Of a DNA stretch of 40,804 nucleotides, positions 13,906 to 39,515 are shown piece by piece. Made by a program: the position numbers and the translations under genes. The stretch's first letter is position 1. Each line of letters opens with the position of its first letter. Source of the DNA: a virus; the UHGV virus genome UHGV-0164601. One strand, given 5' to 3'. Under the pieces are notes generated by a model. It was given only the letters and a program-made list of their open reading frames with translations. It had not been told where the DNA came from and did not search any database.

Positions 13906-14325
13906 TTACTTAATGGCATTAAATCCAGCGTTGATGGATTCCGCAATATTGATGGCACTTGTTTTATCGAAGTGCCCATTCTGAATAAGCGCCGCATGCA
14001 GGCATTGTAACTTCATGTTGTATAAGTTTTCGCGCATGTAATCATCATCACTTTTTTCTTTGGCGTATACAGCGCGAGAAATATCAAACACATCGCCTTT
14101 TTCCATTTCAGAACGTTGTGCTGTTATCCAGTCATGGAACGTAACGCTAGTACCATGGTCTTCGCTAAGAGTTAACCCGGTCAGTCCCTCACTCTGAATT
14201 ACTTCGTAATGCATTTCATTACCAGCAAAAACGCCATAAAAAACGCAGTCTTCAGCCTGAACGATACGAGAATATTTTAATGGCCATTCATTTAGATACT
14301 TAGCCAACATATCAATTGTCTTCAT
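13906..14325 (-). CDS. Hypothetical moron protein (139 aa) between terminase and portal, antisense to the late genes
   Basis: AAGGTG Shine-Dalgarno before ATG 14325; no recognisable domain. Confidence 0.55.
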   Translation of the reverse strand: MKTIDMLAKYLNEWPLKYSRIVQAEDCVFYGVFAGNEMHYEVIQSEGLTGLTLSEDHGTSVTFHDWITAQRSEMEKGDVFDISRAVYAKEKSDDDYMRENLYNMKLQCLHAALIQNGHFDKTSAINIAESINAGFNAIK

Positions 14326-30378: not shown

Positions 30379-31230
30379 ATGAAAAAAATAAATTTGTTTT
30401 TTGGCATAGTGCTTTCAATAGTCTCTGTAAATCCTACAGCTGCCAGTTCATTGCAATGCAATAAGGATAACTTTGATGCATGCAAAACGTGCGAACAATT
30501 ATCAAAGGCTATCGACTTAAAAGAACCTAATCGTGGCGATTACTATAGAGGGGCTTTATGGAATGGGCTTTACGCCTCTTATGTAATTAATTGCCCTGTG
30601 GTTGCAGAGAAGTTACTGAGCCATGGTGCTATACCATCATATGGCGGATATATGGGGTCTATGGGGGCGGTTCTGACAGGAAAATGGCCTCATAACAATG
30701 AATCAATAAATCTTTCATGGGCAGATTTGCTTATAAAACATGGATTTGATGTTAATAGGCATACGGGGAATTATAAATCAGCTACTGAAGTATGGGCTAT
30801 AGATAAAAAACAGATTGAATATAAGTCAGTTTTTGACAAGTTAATTCAATCCAGCGAAGTAAAACCACTCGATCCTTCAAGAAATTTAGAATGGTGTGCG
30901 TCTGAAGGGTATCGCTCAGTTGTCGTTTATTCCCTTAACTCATGTATAGAAAATGCTATAAAACGTTTGGATGACGGTGTTTCTTCAGCGTCTGATATTT
31001 CATCAGCAGCCGTAAATTCCTGTACTAGCGATGTAGAAAATTTCAATAAGCATTTGGCATGCAAAGCAGCTGTTAAAGAAAACTCTGATAAAGAGAGAAG
31101 CAACGTTTACCAGTTATTAACCAGTGATAGTCAAATGAATAAAAATGTTATTGATATGCTGAAGGAAAGAAATATTGAAACGGTTCTTGAATTTAGAGCT
31201 GAAAATCGATCAGCGAAAACTGCACAGTGA
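30379..31230 (+). CDS. Secreted protein of unknown function (moron), possible ankyrin-like repeats
   Basis: Signal-peptide-like N-terminus MKKINLFFGIVLSIVSVNPTAASS; visibly AT-rich codon usage; LL.HGA / LLIKHGFDVNRHT ankyrin-like segments; own terminator. Confidence 0.55.
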   Translation: MKKINLFFGIVLSIVSVNPTAASSLQCNKDNFDACKTCEQLSKAIDLKEPNRGDYYRGALWNGLYASYVINCPVVAEKLLSHGAIPSYGGYMGSMGAVLTGKWPHNNESINLSWADLLIKHGFDVNRHTGNYKSATEVWAIDKKQIEYKSVFDKLIQSSEVKPLDPSRNLEWCASEGYRSVVVYSLNSCIENAIKRLDDGVSSASDISSAAVNSCTSDVENFNKHLACKAAVKENSDKERSNVYQLLTSDSQMNKNVIDMLKERNIETVLEFRAENRSAKTAQ

Positions 31231-31236
31231 TCAAAC

Positions 31237-31261
31237 AGGCCGCTTTCGCGGCCTTGTTTTT
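31237..31261 (+). terminator. Rho-independent terminator after the secreted-protein gene
   Basis: AGGCCGC-TTTC-GCGGCCT hairpin followed by TGTTTTT. Confidence 0.6.
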
Positions 31262-31300
31262 AACGAATGCCACCGCCGCCTGGGTGGGAATCCGCAGACA

Positions 31301-31323
31301 CAAAAAAGCCCGCGCCGCGGGCT
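31301..31323 (-). terminator. Rho-independent terminator of the minus-strand two-gene cassette
   Basis: GCCCGC-GCC-GCGGGC hairpin containing the stop codon, followed on the minus strand by TTTTTTGT. Confidence 0.5.
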
Positions 31324-31762
31324 ATTCTTCTTCATCATAAAAAAGCGGATTGTCGTTTCCATCTGATGAAAGGAAAGGTATGTGTTCTCTTGAAAATCCA
31401 ACAACGACAATTTCATTATCATTTTTTGCATAATGAATGCATTCATTAGAATGCATTCCGCCAGGGTTGAAATTTAAGTTAATGGTATAATTCTTAAATG
31501 TGTTTGGATACCATGTTGGCCCACAATGATAATGCCAATAATTCTCTTGCTCATAATTGTCTGAGCCGGGAATTTTATCATGGTTATCATCAACCCACGA
31601 TGGCTTGTTTTTTCCAACAAGCGCCCTTCCATTGGCAACATCTTCTAAAAACCTTTGTATGATTTTTATTTCATCGTCAGTAAGGAAAGGTCCGTCTACA
31701 GCGAAAGGGGTGTTGCTTTCCCCATTTAGAAAACTATTAGATATTCTAATGTTAAACTTCAA
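31322..31762 (-). CDS. Hypothetical protein (146 aa), distal gene of a two-gene moron cassette
   Basis: TTG start at 31762 with AGGAG 6 nt upstream; AT-rich; conserved-looking YWHYHCGP segment; acidic C-terminus FYDEEE; no family recognised. Confidence 0.5.
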   Translation of the reverse strand: MKFNIRISNSFLNGESNTPFAVDGPFLTDDEIKIIQRFLEDVANGRALVGKNKPSWVDDNHDKIPGSDNYEQENYWHYHCGPTWYPNTFKNYTINLNFNPGGMHSNECIHYAKNDNEIVVVGFSREHIPFLSSDGNDNPLFYDEEE

Positions 31763-31782
31763 GACAAACTCCTAATGTGCTT

Positions 31783-31950
31783 CTATTTGGAGCGAAATGC
31801 CGCCTTGAAGTCGCTGAAAGATGTTCCTGTCTGGTAAACCATATCCTTGTCGCGCTCTTTGCTTGCGCGGCCAAGCATAACTTTTCCAATGACATCCCAG
31901 CATTGCTTGGCTTGTTCATTGTGCTGAGTACGATTTTTCAACGCTGTCAT
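31783..31950 (-). CDS. Hypothetical small protein (55 aa), proximal gene of the two-gene cassette
   Basis: Not in the ORF track (<60 aa); ATG 31950 preceded by AGGAGG (31957-31962); MTALKNRTQHNEQAKQCWDVIGKVMLGRASKERDKDMVYQTGTSFSDFKAAFRSK. Confidence 0.45.
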   Translation of the reverse strand: MTALKNRTQHNEQAKQCWDVIGKVMLGRASKERDKDMVYQTGTSFSDFKAAFRSK

Positions 31951-31962
31951 ATCGCGCCTCCT

Positions 31963-31977
31963 TTACCTTTAAGGTAA
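31963..31977. promoter_or_regulatory. Operator-like palindrome TTACC-TTTAA-GGTAA between the predicted -10 and the ribosome-binding site of the cassette
   Basis: Perfect copy immediately upstream of the AGGAGG Shine-Dalgarno. Confidence 0.5.
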
Positions 31978-32005
31978 TAGTACGCTATTCACCCACAGTC
32001 TGCAA
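31977..32005 (-). promoter_or_regulatory. Candidate sigma70 promoter of the two-gene cassette
   Basis: Minus strand -35 TTGCAG (32005..32000), 17-bp spacer, -10 TACTAT (31982..31977). Confidence 0.4.
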
Positions 32006-32050
32006 TCTGTACAGAATTATTTAAAGGCACATCCCTGTGCCGCCGTTCTG

Positions 32051-32737
32051 TCAGAAGAACCCTGCCTTGTCGTTGATGTACTCCGCGTGCGTCTGGATAT
32101 CACGCAGGCATTTGCTCACACCGACGATGTAGCAGAACATGGTGGTCAGTTCCGCCGCCGCGCCCGATACATCATGCCCGTCGTCCTGCAACTGATTCAG
32201 CAGATTCATCAGCAATGAGTTCTCCGTCAGGCCGAGAACACCCGACGGCGAATGAATCAGACTGCGGTAGCCTGGCTTCAGTGGGGCACTGTAGGTTTTG
32301 TTCTCTATCTTCATCGCCTGCATTACTGCTGACGCCGTGGCGTTGGCTACCTGGTCGGCAACCATCTTTATGCGCTCTTCCTGCGGGAGCGAGTTTTTAA
32401 TGTAGCTTCCGGTGCGGCGGATCTGAGGAAGAACCTCACCTGTAACCCATTTGCGAAAGCGGTAGGGGATAGTGCCTGGTGTCACTGCGTCGCGGCAGCG
32501 GAGGATCAGTGTGTAGAGGCCTGACTCGTTGATAATATTGGTTTCGCCTTGACGGCCTAAGTTAAATTTAGCCCTTTCATCATCATCAAGAGATTTTATT
32601 GACATAGTGGGGTTTGTCAGTTGAAGAGCTTTAATAACGTCTTTGGCAACAAACCAAGGATTTCCATCAATAACAATGGCTCGAATGGTTGCTTCTGATT
32701 CAAAATGAAAAACAGATGGGGTTACGTTAGCAGTCAT
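32051..32737 (-). CDS. Phage antirepressor (BRO-N domain with KilA-C/Ant-type C-terminal domain)
   Basis: N-terminal FHFESEATIRAIVIDGNPWFVAKDVIKALQL...ESGLYTLILRCRDA is a typical BRO-N motif; start at ATG 32737 (AAGGTG upstream) rather than the ORF-track start 32890, which would run through the leader hairpin. Confidence 0.75.
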   Translation of the reverse strand: MTANVTPSVFHFESEATIRAIVIDGNPWFVAKDVIKALQLTNPTMSIKSLDDDERAKFNLGRQGETNIINESGLYTLILRCRDAVTPGTIPYRFRKWVTGEVLPQIRRTGSYIKNSLPQEERIKMVADQVANATASAVMQAMKIENKTYSAPLKPGYRSLIHSPSGVLGLTENSLLMNLLNQLQDDGHDVSGAAAELTTMFCYIVGVSKCLRDIQTHAEYINDKAGFF

Positions 32738-32890
32738 AGTGATCACCTTTGTAGTTAGGTTAATCACCACTACCGACGCCAATCGGTTGGTGGTGAACTG
32801 TGCAGGGTTGGCGTAACCGGCTACAAAGGACCCGGCGCACCTTTCGGTGCCCCCACACAGCCCACCATAGAATAGGTGCGCTTTACACAT

Positions 32891-32909
32891 AAAAAAACCG
32901 CTTATGCGG
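32891..32909 (-). terminator. Weak terminator/attenuator-like hairpin in the antirepressor leader
   Basis: CCGC-TTAT-GCGG hairpin followed on the minus strand by TTTTTTT. Confidence 0.3.
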
Positions 32910-32924
32910 CATATGTGCCTCTGT

Positions 32925-32976
32925 AGTAATCCGGGACGCCAATCCCGGCACTGGATTTTGCCAGTGCCCGATTACT
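32925..32976. other. Structured element (nested inverted repeats) upstream of the antirepressor; candidate leader RNA or small RNA
   Basis: AGTAATCCGGG...CCCGATTACT outer stem enclosing hairpins CCGGGA-CGCCAA-TCCCGG and CACTGG-ATTTTG-CCAGTG. Confidence 0.3.
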
Positions 32977-33003
32977 ATGGCACAAGAGGAGTGCAATGTA
33001 AAT

Positions 33004-33018
33004 TTACCGTAAAGGTAA
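33004..33018. promoter_or_regulatory. Operator-like palindrome TTACC-GTAAA-GGTAA
   Basis: Perfect copy in the divergent region between the antirepressor and the membrane zinc-ribbon gene. Confidence 0.5.
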
Positions 33019-33096
33019 TGATAAGCGCGAAGAAACATTAAAATCAACCGTATTTGGTTGATTGCGTTTAACGCTTGATCACCTGAAAGCAAGATA

Positions 33097-33111
33097 TTAC
33101 CTTTAAGGTAA
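33097..33111. promoter_or_regulatory. Operator-like palindrome TTACC-TTTAA-GGTAA
   Basis: Perfect copy 21 bp upstream of ATG 33132; identical sequence to the site at 31963-31977. Confidence 0.5.
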
Positions 33112-33131
33112 TGTTATTGTGAGGAAAAGCA

Positions 33132-33860
33132 ATGGAAGTTTTCTGGATAGTTGTTGGTGTGGTTGCGGTGATTATTTACGTTATCAACCAGAACAAGACT
33201 AAGATCTCTGATCGTACGGTCGTTAATCATAACAAAACGATAAAGACCGAAGATGGGGAGATAACGATTAATCGTACACAGGTGATAGAACACACCTCTA
33301 CTCAGTTTCAAAAAACTGGAGGTAATGCGCCTAATATTTCCGCACCTCCTGCTTATGATAGTGCGGTAATCCAGACATATTATAAACAGCAGGAGTTAGC
33401 AAAAGAGAGGCAACTGATTCAGCCAAAGCCGTTTACAGCTGAGATTCCACCTGGAGTGTCAACGCGTCCGGCATATCATGGAAGATTCCCTGGTGATGAC
33501 ATATCGTCTCAGTCATCTAAAAAAGCACCTCAGGCAATATCAGAGCCAGCAAGAATACCTTCTGTATCGCTGCCAAAAGAAGAATCAGCTAACAGAGTTT
33601 CAAGTGGTAGCAAGCAGTGCTTGCGATGCAGAATAAACCTTCCATATGAAAAATTCAGGAAATCGTCAAAAAATCCAGATGGATTGACTAAATGGTGTGC
33701 AAGGTGTCTCGATGGCCCAAAGAATACACGCCATATGAAGTGGTGCCCAATTTGTAATGTCCGCAGAAAACGAACCAGCTTTTACCCTAATAATCAAAAT
33801 GCGGACGGCTTAATGGCATGGTGCAAAACGTGCTGGGATGAGCACAAAGCGAAACGATAG
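33132..33860 (+). CDS. Membrane-anchored protein with duplicated CxxC-x22-WCxxC zinc-ribbon (rubredoxin-like) modules
   Basis: N-terminal hydrophobic helix FWIVVGVVAVIIYVI, Pro/Ser/Gln-rich linker, then CLRC...DGLTKWCARC and CPIC...DGLMAWCKTC repeats; GAGGA before ATG 33132. Confidence 0.6.
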   Translation: MEVFWIVVGVVAVIIYVINQNKTKISDRTVVNHNKTIKTEDGEITINRTQVIEHTSTQFQKTGGNAPNISAPPAYDSAVIQTYYKQQELAKERQLIQPKPFTAEIPPGVSTRPAYHGRFPGDDISSQSSKKAPQAISEPARIPSVSLPKEESANRVSSGSKQCLRCRINLPYEKFRKSSKNPDGLTKWCARCLDGPKNTRHMKWCPICNVRRKRTSFYPNNQNADGLMAWCKTCWDEHKAKR

Positions 33861-33884
33861 GCCGCTCTTGCGGCCTTTAAATTT
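33860..33884 (+). terminator. Rho-independent terminator after the zinc-ribbon gene
   Basis: GGCCGC-TCTT-GCGGCC hairpin followed by TTTAAATTT. Confidence 0.55.
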
Positions 33885-34140
33885 ACCGGGTTTGTTTTCG
33901 TAATTGTTCGGCACAATAGTCGAGATGTGTTTGCAGATCCCGCATAGACATCTGTGAGCTGGTGACGTAGTTAATCAGTGCAGTCAGTTCGGCAAGTGGG
34001 CCATCGACATTAAATCCATCCTTATCGAGATCCCGGAGTAATTTCATCAAGTGCGATCCCTCCACCAGTGACCTGACGCCTCCCGGCGTGTGAATCCTTT
34101 CGGTAAATCCGTCTTCCAGTGGATAGTGATACTGCTGCAT
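33883..34140 (-). CDS. Small antirepressor-like protein (85 aa), stand-alone paralog of the antirepressor C-terminal domain, with a LexA box in its promoter
   Basis: TPGGVRSLVEGSHLMKLLRDLDKDGFNVDGPLAELTALINYV...MRDLQTHLDY aligns with the C-terminus of the 32051-32737 protein (SPSGVLGLTENSLLMNLLNQLQDDGHDVSGAAAELTTMFCYI...LRDIQTHAEY); start at ATG 34140 with GGAG upstream. Confidence 0.55.
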   Translation of the reverse strand: MQQYHYPLEDGFTERIHTPGGVRSLVEGSHLMKLLRDLDKDGFNVDGPLAELTALINYVTSSQMSMRDLQTHLDYCAEQLRKQTR

Positions 34141-34159
34141 CTTATCTTCTCCATGCAAT

Positions 34160-34179
34160 AACTGTATATTTATACAGTA
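34160..34179. promoter_or_regulatory. LexA (SOS) box
   Basis: AACTGTATATTTATACAGTA: CTGT-N8-ACAG with an AT-only spacer, 18 of 20 matches to the E. coli consensus TACTGTATATATATACAGTA; 20 bp upstream of ATG 34140. Confidence 0.65.
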
Positions 34180-34216
34180 GCAAATAATTTGTTTGCTATC
34201 CAGCACGTTTTGCAAA

Positions 34217-34231
34217 TTACCCGAAAGGTAA
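34217..34231. promoter_or_regulatory. Operator-like palindrome TTACC-CGAAA-GGTAA
   Basis: Perfect copy between the SOS-box gene and the tailspike gene; 32 bp upstream of ATGTGGTT (34264-34271). Confidence 0.5.
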
Positions 34232-34335
34232 TATCTATTCATATTCACAGTATTTCTATCCATATGTGGTTTTTCAGGTAATAGAATAACCGGATATGCG
34301 GCGCAACGGGTGCTGCGACTATCTGGAGATTTAAC

Positions 34336-37311
34336 ATGACGGTCTCAACCGAAGTTGACCACAACGAATACACAGGTAACGGCGTTACGACATCATTTCC
34401 GTATACCTTTAGGGTTTTCAAGGAATCTGATCTGGCAGTACAGGTGGTTGACCTTGACGAAAATATCGCTGTGCTGGCTCTTGATACTGATTACACTGTC
34501 ACTGGGGCTGGTGGATATAATGGCGGTAATGTAATTCTGTCGAAGGCGTTAGCTAACGGTTATCAGATTTCTATATCACGAGAGCTACCGGTTACGCAGG
34601 AAACTGATCTGCGAAATCAGGGAAAGTTTTTCGCTGAGGTGCATGAAGACGCGTTAGATAAGCTGACGATGCTGATACAGCAAGTCCGCAGTTGGTTTAG
34701 CCTGGCGCTGCGCAAACCATCATTTGTGGCAAACTATTACGATGCTTTGAATAATTACATCCGCAATTTGCGCGATCCTTCCAAGCCTCAAGATGCAGCT
34801 ACAAAGAATTATGTTGATAATATTGTTAATGTGAATATTAACAGGACATTACGGGTTCCAGATAATTTTATTGAACCACTTCCTCCAGTTCATTTACTGG
34901 AAGAAACTGTCATTGGTATCGTCAATGGTAAACCTATAGGTGTACCTGTGCCTTCTGGCAGTGCCGCAGATGTTCTTCTGCAATTATCTAGCGCAGGAGA
35001 AGGAAAAGGTGATGCATTAATTGGTGTAAGGCAGCCATTTGCCGGGGCTGTAACTATAACTCAGCATGAAAACAATGCTCTTTTCTTAAATGTAAAACAA
35101 TTCGGAGCAATTGGGGATGGGAAATATCATCCATTATCTGAGAGGTTTTCTTCAATTTCTGAAGCAAAATCCTTATATCCTTTTGTTGACTCATTATCTC
35201 AGTCAATAGACTGGGCCGCGTGGCAAGCTGCCATTAACACAGGAAAGGTTATTTATGGTACTGATAATGCGTATGTAATAACGGATACGTTAACACCTGT
35301 TTCTGGTGGTGGGATAATTGGTCTTGGTGTGGGCAAATGGGTCTCTGGATATACTGCAACATTTGCTCCTGATATTACCACAGGGACCACATTCCTGATG
35401 TACGGGGTAGGAAATAAAAAATATACTGTAGATTGTGTTTCTAATATGGATGTTAGTGGTGGTGTGGTTTCTAATCCATCTTCCGAAGACCCGTATACAA
35501 CAACGGCACCTGCGTCATCATATGATTTATTGGATTTTACTAACGGTGATGCTAATGGGACTACAAGAGCCACGCTTAAACCATTCTCTGCCGCAATATT
35601 GATGCCTGAGACAGGATGTGTTCGCCTTGAGAACTTTCGTGTTGTTCCATATTTCAATGGGCTGGATGGTTATAAAGACATTGCAAATACCGGTCTTGGC
35701 GATGAGTGGGATGTAGGTATTTGGTCACGTGCGTCTTTTGGCAATGAATACCGCAATTTGCAGGTGGTTGGATACTGGCGCAAGACGGCACTTTTAAAAA
35801 CGAACATTCCTGTATCTGGCACGCTGGCCGCTCAGGGCGAGGATGAAAACTATTATCACTGTAGATTCCAGGGATTCAAGGGTATTTCGATCCGCGCCCA
35901 TGATGTATTCCGAATTACAGCGGTAACGTCCAGCACTATCGAAATCCCATGGTCAGCAAGCCACACCTTCGAAACGTCCGGGGTTTTAAGATCTGGAGGC
36001 AGGAATTTCACTTATTCAGGATTATCCGTATCCGGTGATAAGTTAGTATTTACTGGAGTGTCTAACGCTTCTGAGGCAACAGTAGGTTCTACTATACGGC
36101 GAAATGACATAGATAACTTTGGTATGGCGGGAACGCAATTTTTCGATTGCTACATTACCAGCCTGTATCACCACACACATCTGCTTGCCACATCGCAATA
36201 CCTGTCTCAGCCATTCAGCCGGCCATCAGAGTGTATGGAGGTTTCAGGGGAACCAGTTCGCGGTGTACAGGTACATGCGGGAACCATTCAGGGATGGGAT
36301 GATGTTCTTATTCATCTGCATGACTGTGGAAATATGAACTTTTACAGTACATATTTCGAAAGCCAGCAAGCATATGTAACTATAAATGGTGGTAATGCTA
36401 TTGGTTATGGAGCACGTATGATAGCTTCCCGGCAATCAACAAGCTCATTACCATATGCAGCAGGGAATACTCGAGTGCTTAGAATGGTCGGGTGCTCTGA
36501 AGGCAATGGCGTTGACTGGGGTCCTGTATTTAACAACTATACAGGAGGAAGATATAATTCTGGAGACGGTGTATTTAACCCCCGCGATGCATTTATAGAC
36601 CATAAATCTCTTCCTGAGCAGTCAGGAGGTGAGTCAAGACTCGTATCACAAAAAGGAAATGCCAGAGTAGTATGTGGTGTTGGTAAAACTGTACTGCTTG
36701 GACCAACGTCAGGAGATTGTAATTTACAGAGCAATACTGGAAGTTTAAATATTAGAAGTGGGATAAGAGTAAGAATCGGTCACGCTGATGGAACAGACTG
36801 GTGGTTGGCAGATGCTAATAAAATAGCTCCTGTTGATGATAATGTTAAAGCTATTGGACAGCCATCAAACAGATGCTCTGTTATCTATGCAGGAACCGGG
36901 TCAATCAATACGTCAGATGAAACTCTTAAAACAAGATATGATATTCTTAATGCAGAGCGTAATGCCGCTATTGAAATAAAGTCAGTCATCTATAAATTTA
37001 AATTTAATGACTCAATTAATCACAAAGGAATTGAGTCGTCCAGGTATCATTTTGGCGTTGGCGCTCAAACCGTAGGGGATATTCTTAGAAAGCATGGTTT
37101 AAACCCTGAGCAATATGCTTTTTGGTGTTACGATGAATGGCCTGACGTATGGGATGAAGAGGTGATAACTGAAGAGAGCACAGATCCTGATACAGGTGAG
37201 AAAATTTATTCTCAATATAAAACAGGAGATATGATTCTTGTAAAAAAAGCAGGAGGACGCTACGGAATTCGTTATGACGAATTAGCCATGTTTATATTAA
37301 TGTCAATGTAA
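34336..37311 (+). CDS. Tailspike / tail fibre with central beta-helix (depolymerase-like) domain and C-terminal intramolecular chaperone (peptidase S74-like) domain
   Basis: N-terminal virion-attachment-like region (NEYTGNGVTTSFPYTF); pectate-lyase-type motif LNVKQFGAIGDGKYHP; C-terminal SDETLKTRYDILNAERNAAIEIKSV... resembling self-cleaving chaperone domains; GGAG before ATG 34336. Confidence 0.7.
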   Translation: MTVSTEVDHNEYTGNGVTTSFPYTFRVFKESDLAVQVVDLDENIAVLALDTDYTVTGAGGYNGGNVILSKALANGYQISISRELPVTQETDLRNQGKFFAEVHEDALDKLTMLIQQVRSWFSLALRKPSFVANYYDALNNYIRNLRDPSKPQDAATKNYVDNIVNVNINRTLRVPDNFIEPLPPVHLLEETVIGIVNGKPIGVPVPSGSAADVLLQLSSAGEGKGDALIGVRQPFAGAVTITQHENNALFLNVKQFGAIGDGKYHPLSERFSSISEAKSLYPFVDSLSQSIDWAAWQAAINTGKVIYGTDNAYVITDTLTPVSGGGIIGLGVGKWVSGYTATFAPDITTGTTFLMYGVGNKKYTVDCVSNMDVSGGVVSNPSSEDPYTTTAPASSYDLLDFTNGDANGTTRATLKPFSAAILMPETGCVRLENFRVVPYFNGLDGYKDIANTGLGDEWDVGIWSRASFGNEYRNLQVVGYWRKTALLKTNIPVSGTLAAQGEDENYYHCRFQGFKGISIRAHDVFRITAVTSSTIEIPWSASHTFETSGVLRSGGRNFTYSGLSVSGDKLVFTGVSNASEATVGSTIRRNDIDNFGMAGTQFFDCYITSLYHHTHLLATSQYLSQPFSRPSECMEVSGEPVRGVQVHAGTIQGWDDVLIHLHDCGNMNFYSTYFESQQAYVTINGGNAIGYGARMIASRQSTSSLPYAAGNTRVLRMVGCSEGNGVDWGPVFNNYTGGRYNSGDGVFNPRDAFIDHKSLPEQSGGESRLVSQKGNARVVCGVGKTVLLGPTSGDCNLQSNTGSLNIRSGIRVRIGHADGTDWWLADANKIAPVDDNVKAIGQPSNRCSVIYAGTGSINTSDETLKTRYDILNAERNAAIEIKSVIYKFKFNDSINHKGIESSRYHFGVGAQTVGDILRKHGLNPEQYAFWCYDEWPDVWDEEVITEESTDPDTGEKIYSQYKTGDMILVKKAGGRYGIRYDELAMFILMSM

Positions 37312-37323
37312 TAATAAATGCAA

Positions 37324-37355
37324 TAACCCCGAATAAAACAGCGGGGTTATTGTTA
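37324..37355 (+). terminator. Rho-independent terminator after the tailspike gene
   Basis: TAACCCCG-(10-nt loop)-CGGGGTTA hairpin followed by TTGTTATT. Confidence 0.6.
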
Positions 37356-37717
37356 TTATAATAATGCTCTTAACTTCTTAAATGATATTTATATGCACTT
37401 AGATTATTAAATCTATATTATGCCTGTTATTTATGTGTTCTGTTATATGTTTTGCAGGCACTGTTGGCAGCATTAAAGGAAATTGTATTTATGGCGAAAT
37501 AGCTGGTATCGTGTTTTTATTGTGCGTAAAAATAACAGACTGCATATATTATTGTATAAAGTTTTGGAAATGAAAACACTCAAACTTACCGCTGTGGATA
37601 TGTTTTGACCATCGCGAATTGGATTGGTAATATTGGGTAACAAAAAACCATAAATGGTTTATCATGCGTAATGCTTTACTGTTCAGGAGGTAGTTATGCA
37701 TATAAACGGTGGAAAAC

Positions 37718-38122
37718 ATGTCAGCTCAACTAACCAGTGAAACTTTAAATCAGTGGCTTAGCATGAGTTCTTTGGCGGCAGTGATAGCAGGAGTTCCTCC
37801 TGAGGTTGCTTTGGGGTCTTTGGCTGGGGCGGTGATTTTTGTTACCTCTGCGGTAGAGTATCCCATTCGTCGTCGCGTGCTCTTGTCGATGCTTAGCTTT
37901 CTCTGCGGACTTCTATTCTACAAACCAGCAGCATCAATTCTTATCGGCATAGCCAGCCTGATCCCTACAATCACACAGGATTCTTTCGAGAAAGGGATTG
38001 TTTTCTCTGCCGGTGCATTTGTGTCAGCAATCGTCGCTGTGCGAATTGGGATCTGGCTCTATCACCGTTCCGATAATCCACGCGAGTTAATTCCGGGGAG
38101 AAAAGACGATGGTAACTCATGA
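37718..38122 (+). CDS. Holin-like membrane protein (putative)
   Basis: About 135 aa with 3-4 predicted transmembrane helices, first gene of the lysis cassette; possible dual start (GTG 37709, ATG 37718). Confidence 0.5.
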   Translation: MSAQLTSETLNQWLSMSSLAAVIAGVPPEVALGSLAGAVIFVTSAVEYPIRRRVLLSMLSFLCGLLFYKPAASILIGIASLIPTITQDSFEKGIVFSAGAFVSAIVAVRIGIWLYHRSDNPRELIPGRKDDGNS

Positions 38123-38417
38123 GCTTTTTTTGCTTATCACCAATGCGGTTATTTGCGCCGGTATAGCAGTTCGAGTTGCCACATTTCGGAGAAACGGTTC
38201 TCAACACAGGCGATGGGGTGGGTGGCTTGCTTATTTCCTGATTGTTGCTGCGGCCAGCATTCCAGTTCGTGTCGCTTATGCAATCTGGTTACGCACGCCA
38301 ATGGTTGTGGATTTATCTGAGGTCATTATCAACGCTGTCATGCTTGCTGCAGTCATTAAAACGCGCGGTAACGTAGTTCAGATTTTCAAAATAACGAGGT
38401 CTAAACATGGAGATTAA
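38109..38417 (+). CDS. Second small membrane lysis protein (holin/antiholin-like, putative)
   Basis: 102 aa, three hydrophobic helices, ATG 38109 overlapping the upstream gene; directly precedes the endolysin. Confidence 0.45.
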
Positions 38418-39036
38418 ACAATTCCAGCGAGCTGCTGGTATCAGCGAGGAACTGGCCGCTCGCTGGTTCTCGCATATAACTTCTGCGATGAAAGAGTTTG
38501 GTATCAGCAAACCAGAAGATCAGGCAATGTTTATTGCTCAGGTCGGGCATGAGTCTGGAGGCTTCACCCGGTTGCAGGAAAATTTCAACTACAGCGTAAC
38601 CGGATTGGCTAACTTCGTTCGGGCTGGGCGTCTCACTCAGGGGCAGGCTAATGCACTTGGTCGCCGTGCTGGTGAACCACCATTGCCACTCGAGCGCCAG
38701 CGCGCGATCGCAAATCTGGTGTACAGCAAACGCATGGGGAACAATGCCCCTGGTGATGGCTGGAATTACCGTGGGCGCGGGCTTATCCAGATTACCGGTT
38801 TGAATAACTATCGTGACTGTGGAAACGGTCTGAAAGTTGACCTGCTGGAGAATCCTGAACTGTTGGCGCAGGACGAATACGCGGCTCGTAGCGCGGCGTG
38901 GTTCTTCTCCAGCAAAGGTTGCATGAAGTATACCGGAGATATTGCACGTGTAACTCTGCTTATCAATGGTGGCCGGAACGGCATTGATGACCGGCGCGCG
39001 CGATACATCACTGCCAGTAAGGTGCTGGCGGTATGA
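38407..39036 (+). CDS. Endolysin, glycoside hydrolase family 19 (chitinase-like lysozyme)
   Basis: GH19 signatures [12 protein letters not shown] and [16 protein letters not shown]; position between the membrane lysis proteins and the spanins. Confidence 0.8.
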
Positions 39037-39515
39037 TCTGGGCATTCGCAAAAGCATACTGGAAACAGTTGGTTATCATGGCGATGCTTGCTGTTCTGGT
39101 CATATCAGGAGTTGTAGCCTGGAATGCACACGGCAGTCGTCAGTACGATGCCGGGTATGCGCAGGCGAAGGAAGACCGCAAAGCTGAAGATGAGATAGTT
39201 CGTCAGCACTACGAACAGGAGAAATCGATCAATGAACGTGAAGCGCAGCAGAGGATCGACCAGGCGCGCAATGATTCTCTTGATGCTGCCGCTCGCGCTG
39301 GCCGGTTGCAGCAACAACTCTTTGCCATCCGTGAGCAGCTCAGGCAGTATAACGCCATTGTCGGCGCTGGGACGTCAGCCGCAGACACCGGAGTTTTGCT
39401 TGCCGACGTGCTCAGCAAATCTCTCGAGAGAAACAGACAACTGGCAGAGTATGCTGACCGGGCAGCCGAAGCCGGAAGAGTCTGCGAAAAACAATACGAC
39501 ACCCTGACCAGATAG
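39033..39515 (+). CDS. Rz-like inner-membrane spanin (i-spanin)
   Basis: N-terminal transmembrane helix ([18 protein letters not shown]) then Gln/Arg/Glu-rich coiled coil; ATGA-coupled to the endolysin stop. Confidence 0.65.
39271..39507 (+). CDS. Rz1-like outer-membrane lipoprotein spanin (o-spanin), fully embedded in the +1 frame of the Rz-like gene
   Basis: [13 protein letters not shown] lipobox signal followed by a Pro/Ser-rich short mature peptide, entirely inside 39033-39515. Confidence 0.5.
   Translation: MILLMLPLALAGCSNNSLPSVSSSGSITPLSALGRQPQTPEFCLPTCSANLSRETDNWQSMLTGQPKPEESAKNNTTP

Follow-up and report, generated by a model that had tools for sequence, protein, structure and literature searches.

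The window analysed here, a stretch of 40,804 nucleotides, is a whole prophage: after an integrase gene at positions 1-1251 come the genes for the terminase, the portal, the major head, tail and internal virion proteins. Those for the holin, the GH19 endolysin and the spanin are found at 37709-39515, and beyond 39734 the host genes yfgI/yfgH begin. Our subject is the open reading frame at 34336..37311 on the plus strand, the strand of all the features below, which starts with ATG and encodes 991 amino acids plus a stop codon, exactly as an earlier, sequence-only reading of this DNA had it. The precursor has a computed mass of 108.0 kDa, and it matches PHROG 1171 'tail spike protein' over its full length (E=0). 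Copies with 99% identity occur in many E. coli genomes, and the RefSeq copies carry the annotation 'tail fiber domain-containing protein'. We identify the product as the tailspike of a complete E. coli prophage of the epsilon15/phiV10-like kind (Uetakevirus), and the best explanation of its role is that this single tailspike is the receptor-binding protein of a temperate podovirus of that type. Right after its stop codon we found a hairpin at 37320..37353 followed by a U-rich stretch, with a folding energy (dG) of -20.1 kcal/mol and a z score of -5.6, none of 200 shuffled sequences being equally stable. It is likely a transcription terminator ahead of the lysis cassette; a consensus terminator scan did not detect it because its loop is 10 nt long.

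We are nearly certain that the tailspike consists of three parts, i.e. a virion anchor, a beta-helix and an S74 chaperone. The anchor covers aa 1-222 (34336..35001), as supported by its identity to Uetakevirus spikes, by a match to the Dpo31 tailspike and by the structural model. Over aa 1-219/282 the protein is 64-76% identical to the tailspikes of phiV10, epsilon15, SPN1S, TL-2011b and PAS61, with 75.8% for phiV10 (aa 1-219) and 70.2% for epsilon15 (aa 1-230), so that the N-terminal ~200 aa are homologous to the spikes of both phages. The N-terminus of the Dpo31 tailspike (28lx/8ck1) is matched by aa 1-129 with E 2.7e-25, and Foldseek places the anchor region of the model on 8ck1_B with a TM score of 0.63, in agreement with the attachment-like function proposed from the sequence alone. 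The Pfam family Phage_T7_tail gives a weak match to this region (E 0.4). In the model, the anchor shows a folded domain (aa ~8-85), then a helix (100-124) and then a linker of low confidence (125-204), with pLDDT above 90 at aa 10-80 and below 50 at 145-204. The anchor part alone is common to ~500 E. coli genomes.

The central part, aa ~250-760 (35083..36615), is predicted by AlphaFold and Foldseek to be a right-handed parallel beta-helix, presumed to be the receptor-binding and catalytic domain. The motif QFGAIGDGKYHP at aa 255-266 (35098..35133), on which the sequence-only reading had based a pectate-lyase-type helix, forms the N-terminal cap; it aligns with VKDYGAIADGAYHPLSERF of 4ru5, and the homologue alignment gives VxDFGAxGDG...DxAAIQAA as the family consensus of this cap. 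Residues 251-313 match the start of the beta-helix in the Pseudomonas phage tailspikes 4ru5 (E 1e-16) and 4ru4 (E 1e-13). The same reading had expected profile matches to both Peptidase_S74 and Pectate_lyase_3; the former stood, at 22.0 bits, and the latter did not, the 991-aa protein having no match to PF12708 (formerly Pectate_lyase_3) even at E<=10. The central 584 aa and a 181-aa fragment with the N-terminal cap likewise have no Pfam match of any kind at E<=10. Because Pfam found nothing in the centre, the beta-helix was established from its homologues, from matching sequences in the PDB and from the predicted structure. The central domain has 1412 homologues in a library clustered at 50%, and PF12708 is matched by 20 of 56 homologues, the best with E 2.4e-18. 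The profile of these 56 homologues, searched against PDB sequences, finds solved relatives only for the C-terminal chaperone and for the initial ~90 residues of the helix. The AlphaFold model of aa 217-800 alone is a confident beta-helix with pLDDT 93.7 and pTM 0.93, and all of its top 50 Foldseek matches in the PDB are beta-helix proteins, headed by LKA1 gp49 (E 3e-10); the best PDB and viral structure matches are exclusively beta-helix tailspikes and glycanases. The closest solved structures are distant, with TM scores of 0.17-0.42. Matches in BFVD are mostly phage proteins of the 'pectate lyase superfamily', and one viral protein reaches a TM score of 0.65. Foldseek with the full-length tailspike model gave low TM scores, and modelling aa 217-800 alone raised the confidence and brought the domain no closer to any solved structure.

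A neck or stalk, aa 761-859 (36616..36912), leads from the beta-helix to the predicted cleavage site. The monomer model is of low confidence here (pLDDT 44-85), and the neck probably folds only in the trimer. Residues 825-859 align with positions 126-160 of the Pfam family End_tail_spike at 22.7 bits, which is under the cut-off of 25. The last domain, aa 860-991 (36913..37308, 15.3 kDa), is a Peptidase_S74 intramolecular chaperone according to its Pfam and PDB matches and the model, and the sequence-only reading, which had seen a self-cleaving chaperone here, was correct as to the domain. PF13884 matches aa 860-922 at 22.0 bits, exactly the gathering cut-off of 22 and hence marginal, and it is matched by 28 of the 56 homologues with a best E of 4.5e-16. 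The C-terminus also matches the PDB sequences 7y5s (5e-23), 3gw6 (9e-14), 4uw8 (1e-11) and 3gud (4e-9). The fold agrees as well: Foldseek finds 3gw6 with E 3e-11 (TM score by target 0.47) and 3gud with a TM score of 0.75, and pLDDT is ~90 over aa 870-990. A serine and a lysine five residues apart are present at the N-terminal edge of this domain, within the motif GTGSINTSDETLK at aa 853-865. This dyad, Ser860/Lys865, aligns with Ser911 (mutated to Ala) and Lys916 in the 3gw6 chaperone of an endosialidase, with the equivalent Ala/Lys of T5 pb1 (4uw8) and with 'TSDARLK' of 7y5s, and the family consensus at the site is TSDxxxK. The segment S860-D-E-T-L-K865 (36913..36930) is therefore a predicted autoproteolytic site, with the cut expected before Ser860, and release of the chaperone would leave a mature spike of aa 1-859 with a predicted mass of 92.7 kDa.

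The beta-helix, neck and chaperone together form an exchangeable cassette, aa 223-991 (35002..37308), which is shared with P22-like prophages and with the T7-like Kayfunavirus YZ1. Nucleotides 669-2975 of the gene are 98.7-99.2% identical in the tailspike genes of P22-like prophages; these prophages adjoin intS/tRNA-Arg, and their spikes start with the head-binding domain PF09008. The recombination junction lies near position 35004 of the window. In YZ1 the protein identity over aa 217-991 is 72%, and the DNA of this sister allele is too diverged to match any complete E. coli genome by megablast. We also looked for diverged alleles of the beta-helix by sensitive blastn and found none; the 15 copies are all at least 99.1% identical. 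These comparisons of sequence indicate that aa 223-991 moves as one unit between unrelated podovirus lineages.

Of 5426 complete E. coli genomes, exactly 15 carry such a copy. The carriers do not share a single O serogroup: by their PGAP names, the O-antigen polymerase (wzy) genes of three krkA-positive carriers belong to the O1, O102 and O6 families. The capsule loci are more uniform. In 11 of the 15 carriers, kps region 2 has as its sole biosynthetic gene one for a 1114-aa 'HAD family hydrolase', whose identity to KrkA (WP_001336789), the ribose-Kdo polymerase of K13/K20/K23, in the K13 reference strain NCTC9022 is 96-100%. This group-2 locus is rare, occurring in 65 of the 5426 genomes, and for the association between krkA and carriage of the beta-helix we obtained an odds ratio of 273 (one-sided Fisher p = 4e-19). 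This p-value is not corrected for phylogeny and overstates the evidence, because the 15 carrier genomes are not phylogenetically independent. The association covers two variants of the KrkA locus with unrelated acetyltransferases (36% identical) as well as two phage backbones that are integrated at different sites. The four carriers without krkA are LS45, XH992, 23CRST013 and OZ547246; LS45 and XH992 have in common a different group-2 locus with glf, dehydrogenase and GT2 genes, and the capsule locus of 23CRST013 differs from both types. An independent study has also seen the related receptor-binding subtype of YZ1 in prophages whose host strains are of types O102, O6, O1 and O153, and proposed a K antigen as its receptor (PMC10408124). 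As a general point, a prophage records a past infection of its host and not the present receptor.

Since the carriers differ in O type and 11 of the 15 have the krkA locus, we consider a capsule the probable substrate, and we put the probability that the spike targets the K13/K20/K23-type group-2 capsule and not the O antigen at roughly 60%. The sequence-only reading had left the choice between O antigen and capsule open, and the evidence now favours the capsule. Its suggestion of an active receptor-binding depolymerase that sets the host range is strengthened by the link to a single host capsule type.

The protein could also be a depolymerase whose link to the K13 capsule reflects hitch-hiking in a few related ExPEC lineages, its receptor being another glycan. 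Candidates would be a group-2-wide feature such as the poly-beta-Kdo linker, or the LS45/XH992-type capsule. Such an explanation would accommodate the four carriers with other capsule loci, all examined ones being group-2 kps, the presence of the spike in no more than 11 of the 65 genomes with krkA, and the neglect of shared ancestry in the association statistics. The association, however, extends across three O types, two krkA variants, two unrelated prophage backbones and different integration sites. Moreover, LS45 and the krkA-positive EC21Z-151 share both the region-1 proteins of kps and the island that flanks them, and differ by the replacement of region 2 alone, which fits a capsule switch after lysogeny. 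We regard hitch-hiking as rather unlikely.

Another possibility, which we find improbable, is that the spike binds its receptor without any catalysis, the beta-helix serving as a lectin-like adhesin only. Homology does not identify any catalytic residues, Pfam gives no glycosidase or lyase match, and the structural TM scores are low, all of which would suit an adhesin. Against this, acidic and basic residues are kept on successive rungs of the helix in distant homologues, the solved beta-helix tailspikes among the matches are mostly enzymes, and 20 of 56 homologues match PF12708, a glycanase/epimerase family. We calculated the conservation over 99 beta-helix homologues of 25-80% identity and found R435, Y446, D459, R482, R520, D523, H612, E635, R642 and E675 to be conserved. 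R520 and E675 are kept in 100% of them, D459, H612, E635 and R642 in at least 95%, and D523 in 91%; these seven would be consistent with a conserved active site. Our literature search found no characterised activity for any member of this beta-helix subfamily.

The closest phage relatives have O-antigen spikes: epsilon15 gp20 is an endorhamnosidase on the Salmonella O antigen, the phiV10 spike acts on O157, and both phages have O-antigen conversion genes. That the tailspike here binds and cleaves LPS O chains in the same way is very improbable: the anchor is 70-76% identical to those of epsilon15 and phiV10 and the closest solved beta-helices include the O-antigen enzymes LKA1 gp49, Sf6, HK620 and CBA120 TSP3, but anchor and receptor-binding part are separate modules, the same beta-helix, at least 99% identical, occurs in hosts with O1, O102 and O6 polymerases, and the prophage ORFs that we scanned include no acetyl- or glycosyl-transferase gene for O-antigen conversion. 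We rejected O-antigen specificity on the host O types.

We propose that aa 1-222 dock the spike on the phage tail and that the beta-helix part (aa 223-859) would bind and probably cleave the host surface polysaccharide, so that the virion reaches the outer membrane. The chaperone (aa 860-991) would drive folding of the trimer and then excise itself before Ser860 by means of the Ser860/Lys865 dyad. The presumed substrate is the group-2 capsule backbone ->3)-beta-D-Ribf-(1->7)-beta-D-Kdop-(2->, and cleavage would be by a hydrolase rather than a lyase mechanism. A glycanase in the cassette could cut the Kdo or the ribofuranosyl linkage, for which the literature searched holds no characterised sequence family. 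Altmann/Stirm and Nimmich reportedly described, in the 1980s-90s, phage glycanases that act on E. coli capsules with Kdo, and our literature search for sequenced K13- or K20-specific coliphage enzymes found none. We tentatively suggest, at somewhat less than even odds, that the cassette is the first sequence-defined phage enzyme specific for the ribofuranose-beta-Kdo capsule of E. coli K13/K20/K23, possibly a beta-helix glycanase. The backbone of K13/K20/K23 is built by KrkA alone (PMC12887879). Available tailspike reagents are essentially for K1 and K5 only (bioRxiv 10.1101/2025.01.29.635457). If specific for the K13 family, the spike would be a reagent for capsule typing and capsule stripping, and a guide to the choice of phages against such strains.

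Tailspikes that combine a beta-helix module with an S74 chaperone are already well known, so the architecture here is ordinary. The interest centres on the probable target. The Uetakevirus spikes, epsilon15 gp20 and that of phiV10, come from the same phage type and share the N-terminal ~220 aa at 70-76% identity and the position of the gene after the internal virion protein genes and before the lysis cassette. Past aa ~222 their receptor-binding parts are unrelated to ours and, unlike ours, they do not end in an S74 chaperone. They target O antigens, whereas the tailspike here correlates with the capsule type, and an O-antigen reading should thus not be assumed for spikes of epsilon15-like prophages. 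The Lederbergvirus prophage spike WP_110221334 (strain CH10508) is 97% identical to ours in protein over aa 223-991 and ~99% in DNA, but this P22-like type has a PF09008 N-terminus and its prophage sits at tRNA-Arg beside intS. The Kayfunavirus YZ1 tail protein AUX83623, 72% identical over aa 217-991, differs in having a T7-type N-terminus and belonging to a lytic phage.

LKA1 gp49, an O-polysaccharide lyase, and phi297 gp27 (4ru4, 4ru5) are the best solved matches, with E 1e-13 to 1e-16 for the N-terminal cap sequence, but they have ~13% identity over the helix, TM scores of 0.16-0.27 and no S74 domain. LKA1 gp49 acts on the LPS B-band of P. aeruginosa (PMC6966330). The K1F endoNF (3gw6), an endosialidase of the K1 coliphages, is a capsule-specific spike with the same C-terminal S74 chaperone and Ser/Lys dyad. 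An endosialidase tailspike is also found in CUS-3, a P22-like K1 prophage. The endosialidases use a sialidase beta-propeller as catalytic domain and polysialic acid as substrate, whereas the presumed catalytic domain here is a beta-helix and its likely substrate a ribose-Kdo polymer. In the K1 endosialidase spikes, one receptor module is found on different phage anchors (PMC6966330).

The tailspike encoded at 34336-37311 (+) is probably specific for the K13-family capsule, as the distribution of its beta-helix among E. coli genomes indicates. A sensitive blastn search found carriers in exactly 15 of 5426 complete genomes, all at 99.1% identity or higher. One of them, EC21Z-151, has a group-2 capsule locus whose serotype-specific region is unusually small, with just two genes, one for a 1114-aa 'HAD family hydrolase' and one for an acetyltransferase, and this serotype-specific DNA occurs in just 65 of the 5426 genomes. 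NCTC9022 is among the 65, and its copy of the 'HAD family hydrolase' is WP_001336789. NCTC9022 is a K13 strain and WP_001336789 is KrkA, a fusion of Kdo-transferase, ribosyltransferase and phosphatase, which alone builds the ->3)-beta-D-Ribf-(1->7)-beta-D-Kdop-(2-> backbone common to K13, K20 and K23 (PMC12887879, 2026). We found the krkA locus in 11 of the 15 carriers, nine with the EC21Z-151 variant and two with the NCTC9022 type. This enrichment has an odds ratio of 273 and a Fisher p of 4e-19; the p-value takes no account of shared ancestry and is an upper bound on how strong the evidence is. The association covers two prophage backbones and two variants of the locus, in hosts of three O types. 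Compared with the K13 enzyme, the KrkA of the EC21Z-151 variant has 96% identity and differs at only three positions of the Kdo-transferase domain, whereas the acetyltransferases of EC21Z-151 (L007:17616-18362) and NCTC9022 (L008:7564-8301) share only 36% identity, a divergence at the sequence level that suggests another acetylation pattern on the same backbone. The EC21Z-151 type is the common krkA variant, occurring in 49 genomes including an O25b:H4 strain and an O102:H6 strain, and may represent K20 or an unnamed type.

Four of the 15 carriers, i.e. LS45, XH992, 23CRST013 and OZ547246, do not have krkA. LS45 and XH992 have one other group-2 locus in common, and 23CRST013 has a third capsule locus. 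The DNA of LS45 (L009 and L010) and that of EC21Z-151 (L006 and L007) encode identical kps region-1 proteins and have the same flanking island, whereas region 2 is entirely different, with seven genes including glf in LS45 and krkA plus the acetyltransferase in EC21Z-151. LS45 has apparently switched capsule recently by exchanging its region 2, in a lineage that already had the prophage. An independent study found the receptor-binding subtype of the T7-like phage YZ1 in prophages of strains typed O102, O6, O1 and O153, and guessed that its receptor is a K antigen (PMC10408124); the krkA association goes beyond this guess and puts a name on the candidate antigen.

The sequence-only reading had proposed a pectate-lyase-type beta-helix, and this is supported, although the central region (aa ~250-760) has no Pfam match up to E<=10. 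Residues 251-313 align with the first part of the helix in the Pseudomonas phage spikes 4ru5 (E 1e-16) and 4ru4 (1e-13), and 20 of 56 homologues match PF12708 (formerly Pectate_lyase_3). The full-length AlphaFold model has pLDDT above 90 over aa 230-760, and aa 217-800 modelled alone give pLDDT 93.7 and pTM 0.93. The 50 best Foldseek matches in the PDB are all right-handed beta-helix proteins, among them the tailspikes of LKA1 (gp49), phi297, Sf6, HK620, CBA120 (TSP1/3) and AP22 (gp54), as well as GH110 galactosidases, AlgE epimerases and the RbmB lyase; the BFVD matches are mostly phage proteins named 'pectate lyase superfamily'. The TM scores against solved structures are just 0.17-0.42, hence the fold class is clear and there is no close structural relative. 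The central-domain subfamily is large and uncharacterised, with 1412 representatives at E<=1e-3. Strongly conserved charged residues lie on successive rungs (R435, Y446, D459, R482, R520, D523, H612, E635, R642 and E675), and may form an active-site or sugar-binding groove.

The C-terminal domain would aid trimerisation of the spike and then cut itself off, the N-terminal domain would dock the trimer on the tail, and the beta-helix would bind and cut the ribose-Kdo capsule, which would open a path for the phage to the outer membrane. Beta-eliminating lyases use uronic acid, and the ribose-Kdo polymer has none of the kind they use, so on general chemical grounds the beta-helix would more likely be a hydrolase than a lyase. 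We consider it improbable that the spike binds the capsule without cleaving it. An O-antigen receptor was rejected, since the carriers would be expected to have one O type and the O-antigen polymerase families that PGAP annotates in three of them differ, O1 in EC21Z-151, O102 in YDC107 and O6 in DLL7555.

The 991-aa ORF with its ATG start is confirmed, and the motif QFGAIGDGKYHP of the sequence-only reading lies at aa 255-266. PHROG 1171 ('tail spike protein') is matched along the full length of the ORF. Eleven complete E. coli chromosomes have copies of the gene with 99.3-99.6% DNA identity, and the usual RefSeq name of the product is 'tail fiber domain-containing protein'. Residues 860-991 are a Peptidase_S74 intramolecular chaperone domain, as was proposed from the sequence; the Pfam score is at threshold, and there are clear matches to the solved chaperones 7y5s (5e-23), 3gw6 (9e-14), 4uw8 (1e-11) and 3gud (4e-9). 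Ser860 and Lys865, within the TSDETLK motif (aa 859-865), align with the catalytic Ser/Lys positions of solved chaperones, and the constructs crystallised for 3gw6 and 4uw8 have the Ser mutated to Ala. If the spike is processed in an analogous way, a cut before Ser860 would give a 92.7-kDa mature spike and a 15.3-kDa free fragment. The neck (aa 761-859) is poorly predicted as a monomer, and its last 35 residues align weakly with the C-terminal portion of the profile for endosialidase spikes, at 22.7 bits, below the cut-off.

Residues 1-222 are the virion-attachment module, in agreement with the attachment-like N-terminus first noticed. They are 64-76% identical to Uetakevirus spikes, and aa 1-129 align with the N-terminal part of the Dpo31/Carin-1 spike, whose structure is solved (E 2.7e-25; Foldseek TM 0.63). 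About 500 E. coli genomes have only this anchor part of the gene. The DNA between gene nucleotide 669 (aa 223, window ~35004) and the stop codon shares 98.7-99.2% identity with the tailspike genes of four P22-like prophages. These genes encode a PF09008 head-binding domain at their start and adjoin intS and tRNA-Arg. In the lytic phage YZ1, a region with 72% identity to aa 217-991 lies behind a T7-type N-terminus. The cassette is thus found in epsilon15-like, P22-like and T7-like spikes, so beta-helix, neck and chaperone travel as one unit across three podovirus lineages. Copies 99% identical to the tailspike (P0035 and P0059) are recorded in Escherichia marmotae genomes, hence the cassette also occurs outside E. 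coli proper.

The window is essentially one complete epsilon15/phiV10-like prophage (~1-39600). It starts with the integrase gene (1-1251), followed by RecT, a repressor-like HTH protein and replication genes, then by terminase, portal, major head, tail and large internal virion protein genes, and then by the tailspike. Two holins, a GH19 endolysin and a DUF2514 spanin come next (37709-39515), and the host genes yfgI and yfgH lie beside the prophage from 39734. EC21Z-151 has the same arrangement, continued by yfgG, pdeF and ppx. The closest phages over the tailspike N-terminus are phiV10, epsilon15, SPN1S and TL-2011b, making the window phage an epsilon15-like (Uetakevirus) temperate podovirus. 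Between 33 and 38 kb the G+C content is 0.38-0.44, down from about 0.50, as expected of a frequently exchanged region. Directly after the tailspike stop codon lies a very stable hairpin (37320-37353, dG -20.1 kcal/mol, z -5.6), not picked up by a consensus terminator scan, within an AT-rich non-coding gap of ~400 bp (37312-37708, about 38% G+C) that extends to the holin gene. Epsilon15 and phiV10 alter the O antigen of their hosts, and CUS-3, a K1 prophage, adds acetyl groups to its capsule. The prophage ORFs that were scanned yielded no 'conversion' gene for an acetyltransferase or a glycosyltransferase.

A variable block (30379-34263) separates the tailspike from the genes for the internal virion proteins. 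It encodes a 283-aa ORF (PHROG 6118, unknown), a 146-aa ORF on the reverse strand, a BRO-N/anti-repressor-like gene (32051-32890, -), a 242-aa protein (33132-33860, +) with an N-terminal hydrophobic stretch and Cys-rich zinc-ribbon-like repeats, and lastly a 126-aa ORF (33883-34263, -) whose C-terminal domain (PHROG 450) is in common with the BRO-N protein. Elsewhere, a 139-aa ORF (13906-14325, -) without a Pfam match lies between the terminase and portal genes, opposite to the structural operon, and is possibly a moron.

Each part of the tailspike has known relatives, i.e. the Uetakevirus anchors, the beta-helix depolymerases and the endosialidase-type chaperone. What is new here is the probable K13-family specificity, in a beta-helix subfamily for which we found no characterised enzyme in the sources searched. 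The closest conceptual parallel is the K1-specific spikes, in which one capsule-specific module is carried on different phage anchors.
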